Shown piece after piece: positions 4,385-64,000 of a stretch of 64,000 nt of DNA; the stretch's first letter is position 1; the number at the start of each line of letters is the position of its first letter. The DNA lies in contig CANQQP010000001.1 in the NCBI GenBank assembly GCA_947626055.1, positions 10,672 through 74,671 of the forward strand, in the 5' to 3' direction. The DNA is from an uncultured Bacilli bacterium (GTDB taxonomy: Bacteria; Bacillota_I; Bacilli_A; RF39; UBA660). The translations under genes were made by a program, and so were the position numbers. A model generated the notes under the pieces. The model was given only the letters and a program-made list of their open reading frames with translations, made no database searches and had not been told where the DNA came from.

Positions 4385-4609
4385 CGTTAAAAGCAATTGA
4401 CAAAGACGTTAATATATTTAGTTTAAAGAGAACTGATGGGTGGTGCAAATCAGTAAACAAAATATATTAAAGATCACTTTGGATGCGTTATATTGAAAAA
4501 AGTAAATATAAACGGGTTACTTACGTTACAAGTATTAAGTGTATGATTAAAATCATAAATTAAGGTGGTACCACGGGTATAACTCGTCCTTTAGTTTATG
4601 ATTTTTTTT
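4385..4609 (+). promoter_or_regulatory. T-box riboswitch leader, putative Ile specifier (AUC at 4473-4475)
   Basis: Stem-I distal-loop-like AGAGA..CTGATGGGTGGTGCAAATCAG. T-box motif aattaAGGTGGTACCacgg at 4558-4577. This forms an antiterminator of helix A1 aagg/cctt, a UGGUACC bulge and helix A2 acggg/ctcgt. An extended lower helix atcataaattaagg/cctttagtttatgat followed by T9 (4548-4612) acts as the terminator. Confidence 0.6.
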
Positions 4610-57909: not shown

Positions 57910-58285
57910 ATATATTAGCATAATTCAAATTTGTTATGAGCAAAGAGGAAAAAATATTGACTATAATTGGCTAGTTAACCAAAGTGACGCGACTATCTAT
58001 GCAATGTATAAAAGAGAAACTGCGCCAAAAAAAGTCGTTCCTTTAAATCAAATGTCATTTGAAGATATTCAAGACGAAATGGAATTATGGGAAATAATGC
58101 AAGAGTATTTTAACAAAGAACTTGATCTAACGATGTATGATTATTACAATTCTCATAATTTATATAATGAATACCACCAAGTAGATTATAATGGCGCCTA
58201 TGATATTAATGGACATTATTTATCAGATAGGCAAAGAATGGAAAATCAAGAGACCATGCGCTTGCTATATAGGGATAAAAGATGA
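57866..58285 (+). CDS. Hypothetical protein (translationally overlapping the upstream ORF)
   Basis: The ATG at 57866 is preceded by GGGTGAAG. It overlaps the upstream gene by 44 nt and the xerD-like gene by 4 nt. Confidence 0.45.
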   Translation: MKENVSLFSTTLKNKYISIIQICYEQRGKNIDYNWLVNQSDATIYAMYKRETAPKKVVPLNQMSFEDIQDEMELWEIMQEYFNKELDLTMYDYYNSHNLYNEYHQVDYNGAYDINGHYLSDRQRMENQETMRLLYRDKR

Positions 58286-59181
58286 ATAAAAATATTAATG
58301 ATTTTTTAAATTATCTTGCTCTAGAGCGTAACTATCAAGAAAATACTACTATCAAAAATTATGAACTCGATTTATTACAGTTTGCAGAGTTTATTCAAAA
58401 TAATAATCTTAATTATTTAAAATTACAAAAAGATGATATTCGTAGCTATTTAAAATATTTAGATACTTTACACTATAAAAATGCTTCCGTGTCTCGCCAT
58501 CTAAGTGCTTTAAGATCTTTTTATGCTTATTTAGTAAATCAAAATATTATTCCTGATAATATATTCAAAACAATCTCTTCACCTAAAAAAGAAAAAAAAT
58601 TACCTAATTTTTTACAATATAGTGAAATTGAAAAAATGTTAGATGTCTGCCAAAAAGATGATGCATTAAGCATTAGAAATCTCCTAATTATTGAAACTTT
58701 ATATGATACGGGTTTGCGTGTGAGTGAACTAGTTAATATAAAACTAGCAGATATAGATAAAAAACGTAAAGAGATCCGAGTTGTTGGTAAAGGAAATAAA
58801 CAAAGAGTAGTTTATTTTGGCGATTATGAAATTGAAAGTTTAGAAAAATATTTGACGTTAAGTAGACCGATTTTATTAAAGGATAAACATAATGATTATT
58901 TATTTTTAAATCATTTAGGAAATAAACTAACTGATCGTGGCGTAAGATTAATAATAGATAATATCATAACAGCCGCGGCCATCAAACATAAAATTTCGCC
59001 TCATACTTTAAGGCATACGTTTGCCACCCATCTTTTAAATGAAGGGGCAGATTTAAAAAGTGTTCAAGAACTTTTAGGACATGCCAGTTTAAGTACAACA
59101 CAGATTTATACTCATGTTTCTAATGAACGTTTAAGAAGTGTCTATTTAAATGCCCATCCGCGTAGTAAAGAAGAAAAATAA
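58282..59181 (+). CDS. Tyrosine site-specific recombinase XerC/XerD family
   Basis: 299 aa. Catalytic residues in the R..HTLRH...T.LL..G.DL..VQ.LLGH.S..TTQIYTH context (R, H-x-x-R, Y). Confidence 0.8.
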   Translation: MNKNINDFLNYLALERNYQENTTIKNYELDLLQFAEFIQNNNLNYLKLQKDDIRSYLKYLDTLHYKNASVSRHLSALRSFYAYLVNQNIIPDNIFKTISSPKKEKKLPNFLQYSEIEKMLDVCQKDDALSIRNLLIIETLYDTGLRVSELVNIKLADIDKKRKEIRVVGKGNKQRVVYFGDYEIESLEKYLTLSRPILLKDKHNDYLFLNHLGNKLTDRGVRLIIDNIITAAAIKHKISPHTLRHTFATHLLNEGADLKSVQELLGHASLSTTQIYTHVSNERLRSVYLNAHPRSKEEK

Positions 59182-59236: not shown

Positions 59237-60922
59237 ATGGAAAAAATCAAAAAAAATTGGATATTAATTTTAGCTGTTTTAGTTTTAATTATTTCGGGTG
59301 TAGTTTATATTTATTTAGCCAATAGAGAACAAGTCGAAATTGAAACAGGTTTCGTACAAGGTAAAGTATCCTATACGTCTATAGATAAATATATTGATGG
59401 TATAATGTTAGCCAAAAAAGATGATCAATATTTAATAATTGATATTAATGATAAAATTATTGAAAAAATTGATAAAGAAGCGACCAATATTGAAATATTA
59501 TATGGCGGTTATTATACTTACACTTTAGGAGAACAAGTCTACTTAAATCGTAATGGCAAAAATATTAAGACATTTGCCACTTTATTTCAAGAAGAATATA
59601 ATTTATATAAAGATGAAAATGATGAAAATGCCTTATACATTACTTTAAATGCGAAAAAATTATTAAAAGATATGTATTATGTTACTATTTCCAATGATAA
59701 TAATATCAAAACCGTAATTTATAATGCGAAAACTGGTAAAAAATTGTATGAAACAGATAGCTATATTTCCTTACTTGAAACTCCCGAAATGAAAAATTAT
59801 GAATATTTTGTAGTTGGTGGTAAAGAATTAGTTCGAATTAGTGATTTTAAAACTATTTTTAAAGAGACCGATGTTAGTATCATTGGCGATAATAACCGTA
59901 CAGATGCCGAAGAAAATATTATAACATCTAGTAATAAGTTCATTGTTATAAGTAGTGTAAATAGTGCTGATGACACAATACGTTATGGTCTAATTGATTA
60001 TGAAGGTAATGTTGTTATTCCTATTTCTTATGAAGATCTTTTCTTTAAAGTAGATAATAATCGTTATATTGCAGCGAAAAAAGATGGTAAATATGGTTTA
60101 ATTAATAGTTTAAATGAGGAAGTATTAGATTTTTCTTATGATGCTATAGAAGTTTATGATAACAATATTGTTCTTGTTAAAAATCGTGAGTTAGGAGTAA
60201 TGAATAACGATTTAGGAATAATTTATAATTATAAGACTTCCGTATCGGATATTGAATACAATTCTCGTGTTTGTTGCGGAAATAATAATGCTTTTGAAGT
60301 TTTTAAACCTGATGATGGTTTAATAATCAGCACTTATCCTAAAAATAATGATGAAAATGATGGGCAAACTTTTAAAAATACCATTGTTGTTAATAAGAAA
60401 AATGAAGTAAAAGAATTAAAAGGAAAATTCTTAAAATATTTAGTGGATGAAGATGCGGTTATTAAAAATCGCTACTTATTAGAAGAAAAAATTGATGATA
60501 AAGCATTATCTTTAAGTATATATGATGATAAAGGCAATACTCTAGCTACATATGAAACAATCGTTTCGGATACTATTAATTCTATTTCTTATGAGCTTAC
60601 TAATGAAAATAATATTTTAATTGAAATATTTAATTCAGAATATAATTCTTTATATAAATCTTTAATAGAAGCTGATACGGGTAAAGTCATTGCGGAAAAC
60701 AATGAAATTTCCAATTACGTTAAGAAACAAGCTTTAGTTGATGGGTATTATTTTTATGGAAAAGATAATAATCTTACTATTAAAGATTCTAATGATAATA
60801 CGGTAATGTCGATTGAGGGTCAAGATATAATTTATTTAAATGGTAATTATTTTGCAGTGAAAAATAAAAATGGAAAATATTATATTTGTAAAGTGTTACT
60901 AAAAGAAGAGCAAGTTAAATAA
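59237..60922 (+). CDS. WG/KWG-repeat-containing membrane-anchored protein
   Basis: N-terminal TM helix, then repeated ..DGKYGLI(D/N)..G..V(I/L)..Y(D/E)..-type units (e.g. KDGKYGLINSLNEEVLDFSYDAIE). Confidence 0.55.
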   Translation: MEKIKKNWILILAVLVLIISGVVYIYLANREQVEIETGFVQGKVSYTSIDKYIDGIMLAKKDDQYLIIDINDKIIEKIDKEATNIEILYGGYYTYTLGEQVYLNRNGKNIKTFATLFQEEYNLYKDENDENALYITLNAKKLLKDMYYVTISNDNNIKTVIYNAKTGKKLYETDSYISLLETPEMKNYEYFVVGGKELVRISDFKTIFKETDVSIIGDNNRTDAEENIITSSNKFIVISSVNSADDTIRYGLIDYEGNVVIPISYEDLFFKVDNNRYIAAKKDGKYGLINSLNEEVLDFSYDAIEVYDNNIVLVKNRELGVMNNDLGIIYNYKTSVSDIEYNSRVCCGNNNAFEVFKPDDGLIISTYPKNNDENDGQTFKNTIVVNKKNEVKELKGKFLKYLVDEDAVIKNRYLLEEKIDDKALSLSIYDDKGNTLATYETIVSDTINSISYELTNENNILIEIFNSEYNSLYKSLIEADTGKVIAENNEISNYVKKQALVDGYYFYGKDNNLTIKDSNDNTVMSIEGQDIIYLNGNYFAVKNKNGKYYICKVLLKEEQVK

Positions 60923-61018: not shown

Positions 61019-63658
61019 ATGAAAAAATATGTTTATTTATTTAGTGAAGGAAACGCGCAAATGCGTGATTTACTTGGTGGTAAGGGAGCTAATCTTGCCG
61101 AAATGACAAATTTAGGTTTACCTATTCCCCAAGGCTTTACTGTTAGTACAGAAGCTTGTACAGAATATTATAATGATGGAAAGCAAATTTCCAAAGATAT
61201 TGAAGGGCAAATTTTTGATGCTTTAAAACAATTAGAAAAAATTCAAGGTAAAAAGTTTGGTGATAATGAAGATCCTCTATTAGTATCAGTTCGTTCAGGA
61301 GCTCGTGCTTCTATGCCTGGTATGATGGACACTATTTTAAATTTAGGTTTAAATGATGAAGCCGTAGAAGGATTTGCTAAAAAAACTAATAATCCTCGTT
61401 TTGCTTACGATTCTTATCGTCGTTTTATTCAAATGTATTCTGATGTAGTTATGGAAGTGCCAAAATCATACTTCGAAAAAATTATTGATGAGGTAAAAGA
61501 AGAAAAAGGAATTAAATATGATACAGAACTTACAGTTGATGATTTAAAAGAGTTAGTTGTAAGATTTAAAAAAGTTTATAAAGAAGCCATGAATGGGGAA
61601 GATTTCCCACAAGATGCTACTGAGCAATTAATGGGTGCTGTTAAAGCAGTATTTAGATCATGGGATAATCCAAGAGCTATTGTTTATCGTCGTATGAACG
61701 ATATTCCTGGCGACTGGGGAACTGCTGTTAATGTTCAAGCAATGGTATTTGGAAACATGGGTGATACATCTGGTACAGGTGTTGCCTTTACTCGTAATCC
61801 ATCTACTGGTGAAAAAGGTATTTATGGTGAATACTTAATTAACGCTCAAGGGGAAGATGTTGTTGCTGGTGTTCGTACACCATCACCAATAACTAAACTT
61901 GAACAAGATCTTCCAGAATGTTATCAAGAATTTATGAGTTTAGCGCAAAAACTTGAAGACCATTATCGTGATATGCAAGATATGGAATTTACTATTCAAG
62001 AAGGAAAATTATATTTTTTACAAACTAGAAATGGTAAAAGAACTGCCCAAGCTGCTATTCAAATTGCTTGTGATCTAGTAGATGAAGGAAAAATTACTGA
62101 AGAAGAAGCAGTAATGCGTATTGATGCTAAATCTTTAGATCAATTATTACACCCAACATTTAATAAAGAGGCTTTAGCTAAAGGGGAAGTAATAGGTGCT
62201 GGTCTTCCTGCCTCACCAGGAGCTGCGGCTGGTAAAATCGTTTTTACTGCTGAGGAAGCCAAAAAAGAAGGTATTGGTGGCAAAGGGGATAAAGTTGTTT
62301 TAGTTCGTCTAGAAACTACTCCTGAAGATATTGAAGGAATGGTTGCTTCTCAAGGTATTTTAACTGTTCGTGGCGGAATGACTTCTCATGCTGCTGTTGT
62401 CGCTCGTGGTATGGGTACTTGTTGTGTATCTGGTTGTGGTGACATTAAAATTGACGAAGAAAAAGAAGAATTTAGCTTAGGAGGCCAAACATTTAAGAAA
62501 GGCGATTATATTTCTTTAGATGGTACAACTGGTAATATTTATAAAGGGGAAATTGCCACTGAAGAAGCATCTGTATCTGGTAACTTCGGTCGTATTATGG
62601 AATGGGCTGATAAAGCACGTAAGCTAATTGTTCGTACAAATGCTGATAATCCACGAGATACCAAAAATGCCATTAATTTAGGTGCTGAAGGTATTGGTTT
62701 ATGCCGTACTGAGCATATGTTCTTTGATGAAGAGCGTATCCCGAAAATTCGTAAAATGATTTTATCTGAAACTGTTGAAGATAGAGAAAAAGCTTTAAGT
62801 GAGTTAATTCCTTTCCAAAAAGGTGATTTTAAAGCAATGTATAAAGAGTTAAAAGGATTACCTATGACAGTTCGTTATTTAGATCCACCTCTACATGAAT
62901 TTTTACCAACTGAAGAAGAGGATATCAAAGCTTTAGCCAAAGATATGGGTGTAAGTGTAGAGCATTTAAAACAAAAATGTGATGAATTACATGAATTTAA
63001 CCCAATGATGGGCCATCGTGGATGTCGTCTTGCGGTAACATATCCTGAAATTGCTAAAATGCAAACTCGTGCTTTAATGGAAGCTGCTATTGAAGTAAAA
63101 GAAGAAGATGGTTATGATATTGTTCCTGAAATCATGATACCTTTAGTAGGTGAGAAAAAAGAATTAAAATTTGTTAAGGACGTTGTTATTGAAACTGCTG
63201 AAGCTGTTAAGAAAGAAAAGAATTCGAATATTGAATATCATATTGGTACAATGATTGAAATTCCACGTGCGGCCTTACTTGCCGATGAGATAGCCGAAGA
63301 AGCGGAATTCTTCTCATTTGGTACAAATGATTTAACTCAAATGACATTTGGCTTCTCTAGAGATGATGCTGGTAAATTCTTAGATGCTTATTATGCTAAT
63401 AAGATTTACGAATCAGATCCATTTGCTAAATTAGATCAAAATGGCGTTGGTAAATTAGTTAAAATGGCAGTTGAAGGTGGACGTCAAACAAGACCTGATA
63501 TTAAATTAGGTATTTGTGGCGAACACGGAGGAGACCCTGCTTCTGTAGAATTCTGTCATAATATTGGTTTAACATATGTATCATGTTCACCATTTAGAGT
63601 GCCAATTGCTCGTTTAGCTGCTGCTCAAGCCGCTATTAAAGAAAAGAGTAGTAAATAA
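61019..63658 (+). CDS. ppdK: Pyruvate, phosphate dikinase
   Basis: 879 aa. N-terminal ATP-grasp, central phosphohistidine region (GGMTSHAAVVARG) and a C-terminal PEP-utilising TIM barrel (..NDLTQ...R). Confidence 0.95.
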   Translation: MKKYVYLFSEGNAQMRDLLGGKGANLAEMTNLGLPIPQGFTVSTEACTEYYNDGKQISKDIEGQIFDALKQLEKIQGKKFGDNEDPLLVSVRSGARASMPGMMDTILNLGLNDEAVEGFAKKTNNPRFAYDSYRRFIQMYSDVVMEVPKSYFEKIIDEVKEEKGIKYDTELTVDDLKELVVRFKKVYKEAMNGEDFPQDATEQLMGAVKAVFRSWDNPRAIVYRRMNDIPGDWGTAVNVQAMVFGNMGDTSGTGVAFTRNPSTGEKGIYGEYLINAQGEDVVAGVRTPSPITKLEQDLPECYQEFMSLAQKLEDHYRDMQDMEFTIQEGKLYFLQTRNGKRTAQAAIQIACDLVDEGKITEEEAVMRIDAKSLDQLLHPTFNKEALAKGEVIGAGLPASPGAAAGKIVFTAEEAKKEGIGGKGDKVVLVRLETTPEDIEGMVASQGILTVRGGMTSHAAVVARGMGTCCVSGCGDIKIDEEKEEFSLGGQTFKKGDYISLDGTTGNIYKGEIATEEASVSGNFGRIMEWADKARKLIVRTNADNPRDTKNAINLGAEGIGLCRTEHMFFDEERIPKIRKMILSETVEDREKALSELIPFQKGDFKAMYKELKGLPMTVRYLDPPLHEFLPTEEEDIKALAKDMGVSVEHLKQKCDELHEFNPMMGHRGCRLAVTYPEIAKMQTRALMEAAIEVKEEDGYDIVPEIMIPLVGEKKELKFVKDVVIETAEAVKKEKNSNIEYHIGTMIEIPRAALLADEIAEEAEFFSFGTNDLTQMTFGFSRDDAGKFLDAYYANKIYESDPFAKLDQNGVGKLVKMAVEGGRQTRPDIKLGICGEHGGDPASVEFCHNIGLTYVSCSPFRVPIARLAAAQAAIKEKSSK

Positions 63659-63748
63659 TAGTTAAAAAAGGGAAGATAATATTAACGTATACTATTTGAC
63701 ATTTTCATAAAAATATAGTATATTTATATTGCACTTGGGAAAGTGTGA

Positions 63749-63841
63749 AAATGTTTCTCGCTTCCGGGTGGCTAGCGAGTAATAAATAATCCTAGTCGAC
63801 AATGTTTCTCGCTTCCGGGTGGCTAGGCGAGTAATAAATAA
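63749..63841 (+). repeat. Tandem pair of 41/42-nt direct repeats, each containing a GC-rich hairpin followed by UAAUAAAUAAU
   Basis: Unit aatgtttctcgcttccgggtggctag(g)cgagtaataaataat occurs at 63749-63789 and 63800-63841, 51 nt apart. Each forms a stem ctcgct/agcgag with an 11-nt loop uccggguggcu. A third ttccgg motif follows at 63841-63846. Confidence 0.6.
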
Positions 63842-64000
63842 TTCCGGTTGAAAATGTAGAATAACTTCATCATTTAGATGGAGTTTTCTTTTGACAATAG
63901 GGAAGTTATGCTACACAAAATTTGTATAAAAACGTATTGACTTTATATAAAAATATATGCTATATTTTATATCAATTAGTATTTAAGAAACTTACGAAGC

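Follow-up and report, generated by a model that had tools for sequence, protein, structure and literature searches.

The CptIN family of toxin–antitoxin systems (type III) was defined by Blower et al (2012; PMC3401426), who described 33 cptIN loci with 1.9–3.4 copies of a repeat of 40–48 nt. The structure of the CptI antitoxin RNA of E. rectale (PDB 4RMO; Rao et al, 2015; PMC4627078) is a 45-nt H-type pseudoknot, with a one-base L1 and a 9-nt A-rich L2 that makes A-minor contacts, and its single-stranded ends are fed into the toxin. Cleavage by CptN leaves a 2',3' cyclic phosphate on the A of ...GGUUGA, immediately before AAGUUU (PMC4627078). The biochemistry of processing and neutralisation has been described for CptIN_Er only, and CptI RNAs are reportedly highly specific for their cognate toxin (PMC4627078). 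In the ToxIN and AbiQ systems, likewise, an endoribonuclease toxin processes its own repetitive RNA into inhibitory pseudoknots, with a terminator setting the ratio of antitoxin to toxin (PMC4627078). ToxIN of Pectobacterium atrosepticum and AbiQ/antiQ follow the same logic as the mechanism proposed below. They differ in having a toxin of another family, repeats of 34–36 nt in up to 5.5 copies, and a pseudoknot with a triplex core that assembles into a 3:3 triangular complex.

The tandem repeats considered here lie 3' of ppdK, close to the end of a 64-kb stretch of DNA from an uncultured Bacilli bacterium; the whole of this stretch is referred to as the window, and the features of the array described below are all on its forward (+) strand. 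We consider it probable that the repeats are a cptI gene, encoding a CptIN-family RNA antitoxin, and that this is an orphan copy without the toxin gene cptN, probably left by recombination. The system is a known one; what is new is the host lineage, the slightly longer repeats and the orphan status.

The ppdK open reading frame (61019–63658, +) has the Pfam domains PPDK_N, PEP-utilizers and PEP-utilizers_C, in agreement with its earlier naming from the sequence, and is followed by an AT-rich region that occupies the remainder of the window (63659–64000). A promoter-like TTGACA had previously been noted at 63696. It is the −35 element of a sigma-70 promoter for the cptI transcript (63696–63724), in which a 17-nt spacer separates it from a −10 element, TATATT, giving a match at 11 of the 12 consensus positions. 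Between promoter and array, at 63731–63748, the minimum free energy fold shows a leader hairpin, GCACUU-GGGA-AAGUGU (63731–63746), followed by GA, which abuts the first predicted processing site. Leader hairpins equivalent in position and different in sequence were seen by eye at other loci, and this element may have a role in processing.

Two repeat units follow, which are 51 nt (unit 1, 63749–63799) and 52 nt (unit 2, 63800–63851) in length. Their borders were inferred from the cleavage site of CptI_Er, GA↓AAG (PMC4627078). The preliminary description, made from the sequence alone, had proposed two near-identical units of 41/42 nt placed 51 nt apart. The near-identical repeats are real, but the units run head to tail over 51/52 nt with no separate spacer. 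This is seen in the direct repeats, 63747–63775 with 63798–63826 (29 nt, 97%) and 63775–63805 with 63827–63857 (31 nt, 84%), which combine into approximately 2.15 copies. Each unit contains the 6-bp stem CTCGCT/AGCGAG that had been described, enclosing a loop of 11–12 nt, and the AU-rich tail 3' of each hairpin, TAATAAATAAT, was likewise read correctly, as was the single-nucleotide difference of the second copy, which is a single G inserted into the loop beside the stem (CTAGGCGAG). The chance expectation for the 23-nt hairpin sequence, from shuffles of the window, was 0. A GC content of about 60% had been given for the repeats against AT-rich flanks. That figure applies to the hairpin part (70%) only; the whole units have 43–46%, compared with 23% for the flanks and 28.8% for the window.

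Unit 2 is followed by 8 nt that repeat the start of a third unit, AAAUGUAG (63852–63859), and these make up the 3' side of the final processing site that is predicted; nearly all arrays in the alignment described below have AAAATG after the last unit. Two elements beyond this point did not figure in the preliminary description. One is an intrinsic terminator (63863–63892) with a 9-bp stem (63863–63885), a 5-nt loop and TTCTTTT; in complete loci the terminator is positioned between cptI and cptN. A 43-nt spacer without an open reading frame (63894–63936) occupies the place where cptN starts in complete loci, and we infer that it is a deletion scar. The other is a second promoter (63937–63966), TTGACT and TATATT separated by 18 nt with an extended −10 TG, whose leader runs off the window at 64000. 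This leader resembles that of cptI as far as ...ACGAA, where it diverges, and direct repeats tie the second promoter to the first. The stretch from 63937 to 64000 looks like the remnant of a second, truncated module. In two relatives (L062, 575–700; L126) the leader after the second promoter continues past ...ACGAA into unrelated sequence with a terminator-like hairpin, ACCUAAUUUC...GAGAUUAGGU, and a U-run, approximately 100 nt 5' of sepF. This could be a second cptI module that has been truncated; alternatively, it could be a small RNA, or a leader belonging to the sepF operon.

A minimum free energy fold of the single transcript as a whole was not significantly stable (z=−1.78). As a fold of this kind cannot show a pseudoknot, the structure was judged by covariation in a MAFFT alignment of 150 distinct units. 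In this alignment the pseudoknot that was tested pairs columns 12–17 with 31–36 (S1, CUCGCU/AGCGAG) and columns 19–23 with 49–53 (S2, CCGGG/CCCGG). Over the 150 units 95.5% of the pseudoknot cells are paired, and nine of the 11 pairs show changes on both sides. The number of compensatory cells was 144, against 44 ± 5 in shuffles, a number that none of 500 shuffles reached; when the 3' partners were shifted by one to three columns, pairing fell to 27–48%. All five pairs of S2 covary, with CCGGG/CCCGG, CUGGG/CCCAG, CCAGG/CCUGG and CUGGA/UCCAG among the combinations found, and S1 occurs as CUCGC/GCGAG, CCCGC/GCGGG and CUCAC/GUGAG. These data support each repeat forming an H-type pseudoknot with S1 CUCGC(U)/(A)GCGAG and S2 CCGGG/YCCGG. 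The AU-rich tail becomes the long A-rich L2 of this fold (UAAUAAAUAAU). They also provide independent covariation support for the CptI pseudoknot, for which the support had until now come mainly from one crystal structure.

In unit 1 of the window S1 is formed by 63757–63762 with 63774–63779 and S2 by 63764–63768 with 63791–63795, with L2 at 63780–63790. One C/A mismatch and one G-U pair are present in this S2, the mismatch being a state found in 5 of the 150 units. Unit 2 (S1, 63808–63813 with 63826–63831; S2, 63815–63819 with 63843–63847; L2, 63832–63842) is fully paired. The third TTCCGG that had been pointed out after the second copy is at 63842–63847 and, given the covariation of S2, corresponds to the 3' strand of S2 in unit 2. 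Among the other arrays there is a 49-nt subtype (L005, L007, L009, L014 and L018, among others), in which S2 is CUGGA/UCCAG in unit 1 and CCAGG/CCUGG in unit 2. Each unit of these arrays keeps its own pairing, giving two distinct pseudoknots rather than identical repeats.

The identity of the element came from its relatives, all of which are metagenome-assembled contigs. PpdK of the window has close relatives in assemblies labelled uncultured Bacilli. In one of these (L002), with a PpdK that is 96% identical, the same module of promoter, repeats and terminator follows ppdK and is itself followed, approximately 35 nt past the terminator, by an open reading frame of 155 amino acids. This protein matches the NCBIfam equivalog NF047359, 'CptIN family toxin', with an E-value of 2.8e-46 (157 bits, cutoff 90), and aligns over its full length with CptN of PDB 4RMO (E=2.7e-17). 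No match to it was found in Pfam or PADLOC, so that it was identified only by the sequence search of the PDB and by NCBIfam. The order of promoter, tandem RNA repeats, terminator and toxin is that of a type III toxin–antitoxin locus (PMC3401426, PMC4627078). Since the window array is homologous to arrays directly 5' of CptN genes, the repeats are predicted to be a toxin-binding RNA antitoxin. The suggestion of a structured RNA made in the preliminary description is borne out by the covariation, and that of a protein-binding RNA by this homology, as far as sequence comparison can tell.

To see how widespread the array is, one genome per species was scanned with a 22-nt core, AATGTTTYTCGCTTCYGGRTGG, a pattern in which the 5' half of the unit is fixed. 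The core is present in at least 119 stretches of contig, almost all of them from assemblies of uncultured gut Bacilli/'Tenericutes'. Re-extraction of units at up to six mismatches gave 137 arrays among the matches listed, of which 110 have exactly two units, with the units spaced by 49 or 51 nt. A sigma-70-like promoter is present 5' of 107 of 131 related arrays, mostly ending 23–26 nt before the first unit, and a hairpin with a T-run 3' of 121 of 125. What lies downstream was classified with tblastn for the 125 arrays found by the exact pattern among the matches listed. A full-length cptN on the same strand follows 63 of these and a partial or disrupted cptN a further 15, 27 have no cptN, and 20, in which the contig or locus ends at most 800 nt away, were left out of the assessment. 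Roughly a quarter of the assessable arrays (27/105, among the matches listed) are therefore without a toxin gene. In the toxin-linked arrays cptN starts 104–401 nt 3' of the point where the last unit begins, and in complete loci approximately 35–150 nt from the terminator. Three toxin-linked modules (L049, L060 and L105) are 93–94% identical to 63672–63893 of the window. Some genomes have several cptIN modules (L037, L051). Among the fetched contigs approximately 45 have the array after ppdK, and the genes other than cptN that follow arrays differ from locus to locus (mutL, dnaG, thiI, a NUDIX gene, htrA, sepF and others). These findings extend the CptIN family, with slightly longer repeats, into a large uncultured low-GC gut lineage.

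Compared with the described CptIN loci, the sister loci have the same layout of promoter, about two tandem repeats, terminator and toxin, and their toxin is CptN by both NF047359 and 4RMO. The RNA is the same H-type pseudoknot, in which L1 is very short whereas L2 is long and A-rich, and both loci are chromosomal. A copy number of approximately 2.15 is typical, whereas the repeats, at 49–52 nt, are slightly longer than the published 40–48 nt, and the loop between S2 and S1 (5–6 nt) is longer too. Differences also lie in the host, which here belongs to an uncultured low-GC gut Bacilli/'Tenericutes' lineage, and in the toxin gene, which is absent from the window. CptI_Er itself has low sequence identity to the array; the array is assigned to the family by the homology of the sister-locus toxin together with the shared RNA architecture.

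The processing sites can be predicted by the same comparison. The junctions in the window are GUGUGA↓AAAUGU, GUCGA↓CAAUGU and GGUUGA↓AAAUGU, the last resembling the ...GGUUGA↓AAGUUU of CptI_Er. Across the alignment the junction GA↓(A/C)AAUG is conserved, with A5 and A6 invariant and G2 present in at least 90% of the units. With GA and the following AAUG nearly invariant, and given the CptI_Er site, processing is predicted at 63748/63749, 63799/63800 and 63851/63852. It would seem likely that transcription starts from the promoter at 63696–63724, passes through the leader hairpin and the two repeats and stops at the terminator (63863–63892). In each folded repeat L2, being rich in A (UAAUAAAUAAU), would run alongside S1. 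At complete loci some transcripts, a minority, would pass the terminator and extend into cptN, and the precursor would be cleaved by the CptN endoribonuclease just past the GA that is 5' of each (A/C)AAUG, releasing unit-length pseudoknots that would bind CptN and hold it inactive. At an orphan copy there would be nothing to neutralise at the locus itself.

In a complete locus cptN is found 3' of the repeats. No cptN was found in the 64-kb window, either by tblastn or by an unfiltered search with an HMM of 59 CptN proteins (best E=0.015). Past the terminator 107 nt of the window remain, and the sequence beyond is known from relatives only. One of these (L126) has 99.4% identity to the final 169 nt of the window (63832–64000) and another (L062) is 95% identical over 63626–64000. 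Both have the same junction, followed by a short terminator-like hairpin and then by sepF, a divIVA-like gene, frr and a gene for a tRNA-binding domain; the divIVA-like and tRNA-binding-domain genes are very probably also on the contig of the window itself. A 28-mer of the junction after the terminator had no match in the metagenome scan. The absence of cptN from the window and the continuation of L062 and L126 into sepF are the basis for calling the array an orphan.

The relatives also suggest how the toxin gene was lost. Three loci in which PpdK is 99% identical (L001, L003 and L004) match the window to approximately 63636 only and then diverge, and the module is absent at this position. In L125 and L126 the order is cptN, a spacer of approximately 80 nt, a detached remnant of the 3' end of ppdK (approximately 33 nt) and a second copy of the module; L062 also carries a detached ppdK 3' end directly before a downstream module copy. 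The divergence within the 3' end of ppdK and the order in L125 and L126 suggest that a segment comprising the ppdK 3' end, promoter, cptI and terminator was duplicated on both sides of cptN within this group of species, with the last 33 nt of ppdK (63626–63658) as the left edge of the recombining segment. Recombination between the two flanking copies would delete cptN and leave the arrangement seen in the window. On these comparisons the window copy is most likely an orphan antitoxin whose cptN was lost in this way. In L125 the second copy consists of one degenerate unit with a degraded promoter, and in L126 the whole array has been deleted, the junction falling precisely on AATAAATAAT. The ppdK end (GAGTAGTAAATAAT, 63646–63659) also resembles the 3' strand of S1 and L2 of the repeats (GAGTAATAAATAAT, 63777–63790 and 63829–63842), and this short homology seems to mediate deletions (L126, 520–540). 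Orphan arrays are not mentioned in the family surveys PMC3401426 and PMC12283969, where the term 'orphan' has no occurrence. Such arrays provide a modest but concrete means of studying the loss or exchange of type III toxins, and whether antitoxin-only RNAs persist.

The repeats had at first been likened to tandem riboswitches, mini-aptamers or another cis-regulatory element. A tandem riboswitch or regulatory leader acting on the downstream gene would account for the terminator 3' of the array, and preQ1-I and SAM-II aptamers are also small H-type pseudoknots with an A-rich 3' strand packed into the minor groove, the A-minor network of CptI being found in SAM-II as well (Rao et al, PMC4627078). 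Those aptamers differ from the array in that no sequence or covariance-model match was obtained, no link exists to genes for queuosine or SAM, and its partner would be a protein instead of a metabolite. The Rfam search that had been proposed gave no match to the element over the whole window at the gathering threshold, and over 63600–64000 at E≤10 only noise far below threshold (MCS4, ctRNA and the like), with no family matched in the array region, ToxI included. The loops are UCCGGGUGGCU and not ACGR, which upholds the earlier exclusion of guanidine-II. The array has its own promoter as well as its own terminator, with a separate promoter following the latter. No antiterminator or alternative pairing overlapping the terminator was seen, the third partial repeat ending at 63859 and the stem starting at 63863, and apart from cptN a different gene lies downstream at each locus. 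The regulatory reading is thus extremely unlikely, and with this false lead removed the correct annotation of what appeared to be a new tandem riboswitch is a type III antitoxin RNA. Dispersal of a REP-like or MITE-like repeat, or a miniature CRISPR array, is given equally little weight. Units that are short, palindromic and GC-rich within an AT-rich genome, with many copies across genomes, would be expected of such elements, but there is one locus in the 64 kb, and the comparison across relatives that had been suggested as a check found one or two arrays per locus, always as modules of promoter, array and terminator in a few fixed gene contexts, of which the position after ppdK is an example. 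Terminal inverted repeats around the units are confined to AT-rich matches in the promoter region, and the unit spacing of 49–52 nt equals the unit length, which leaves no spacers. CRISPR arrays, REP/MITE elements and a DNA operator site were dropped on the absence of spacers, the single locus and a covariation that preserves RNA pairing, G-U pairs included.

More weight attaches to explanations that accept the array as cptI and differ over its history. The orphan could be kept by selection as an antitoxin acting in trans, with a role in anti-addiction or immunity, against a CptN whose gene is at another site of the genome or is carried by a phage or mobile element. Phage PhiTE is reported to carry pseudo-ToxI arrays through which it escapes ToxIN. 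These are likewise antitoxin-only arrays without an adjacent toxin, acting in trans, but they are phage-borne and evade abortive infection, whereas the array here is chromosomal, beside housekeeping genes and with signs of decay. The near-consensus promoter, the intact terminator and the fully paired pseudoknot of unit 2 would fit selection, as would the presence of several cptIN modules in some genomes. The 27 of 105 arrays without cptN also have an average of 9.45 of 10 pairs formed compared with 9.68 for toxin-linked arrays, though the exact-match pattern biases this sample of orphans towards intact copies. Against it, the units of the window and L062 have approximately eight differences in 103 nt when compared by eye, at least as much divergence as in the flanks within an overall identity of 95%, and pairs are broken in both, by the C/A mismatch in S2 of unit 1 of the window and at the outer S1 pair of unit 1 in L062. 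The array is deleted or degenerate in L126 and L125, as described above, and the specificity of CptI for its cognate toxin does not favour action on another CptN. Given the unit 1 mismatch, the divergence of units relative to flanks, the decay in relatives and the specificity of CptI, a recent relic is favoured over a selected trans-acting antitoxin, which we regard as rather unlikely.

It is also conceivable that the locus is really complete, with cptN beyond the end of the window or skipped by the assembler between near-identical module copies. Contigs often break at arrays, as seen in the 20 arrays that have such an end at most 800 nt away, which shows that modules are repeated within genomes and that an assembler could pass over a cptN lying between similar copies. 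In L125 and L126 cptN is just 5' of a module copy, and the window stops very soon after the terminator. At the position of cptN, however, approximately 35–150 nt past the terminator, the window has the second promoter and its leader, and the same junction runs into sepF in L062 and L126, so that a complete locus is very unlikely. A further proposal, to which we give a low probability, is that duplicated modules of promoter, cptI and terminator, placed on both sides of cptN and of other defence genes (AbiD, NERD-HRDC, an AbiEii-like ATPase) 3' of ppdK, act as arms for homologous recombination in the swapping of toxin or defence cassettes, the leftover copy still expressing antitoxin and protecting the cell. 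If this were true, a leftover cptI would be an RNA anti-addiction module, active while a toxin is being lost and whenever that toxin enters again. The reading we prefer for the window copy is still that of a recent relic of toxin loss.

Several other genes were observed at or near arrays of this kind. Genes of defence type are present in some genomes at this site after ppdK, or after cptI arrays, encoding AbiD/Abi_2, a NERD and HRDC protein and an AAA_21 (AbiEii-like) ATPase (L002, 13409–14425; L083, 6491–7456; L100, 2247–3035; L015). In L015 an open reading frame of 300 amino acids starts 189 nt after the start of the first unit of the array. The position of cptI beside ppdK thus has the look of a defence islet that is small and variable. 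In three species (L007, 3109–3708 in the orientation of ppdK; L066; L108) a family of approximately 200 amino acids with no Pfam or NCBIfam match is found after or between cptI arrays, in place of cptN, and may represent a partner of the modules, or cargo, that has gone unrecognised.

On the other side of ppdK, the window encodes a XerC/D-like tyrosine recombinase with Phage_integrase and SAM_1 domains (58282–59181) and, just 5' of ppdK, a 561-amino-acid WG-repeat protein (59237–60922). The synteny of these two genes is conserved in L001–L004, which suggests that they are probably housekeeping genes rather than part of a mobile element. A T-box leader at 4388–4594 (+; Rfam RF00230, 125 bits, E=2e-27) is unrelated to the array.
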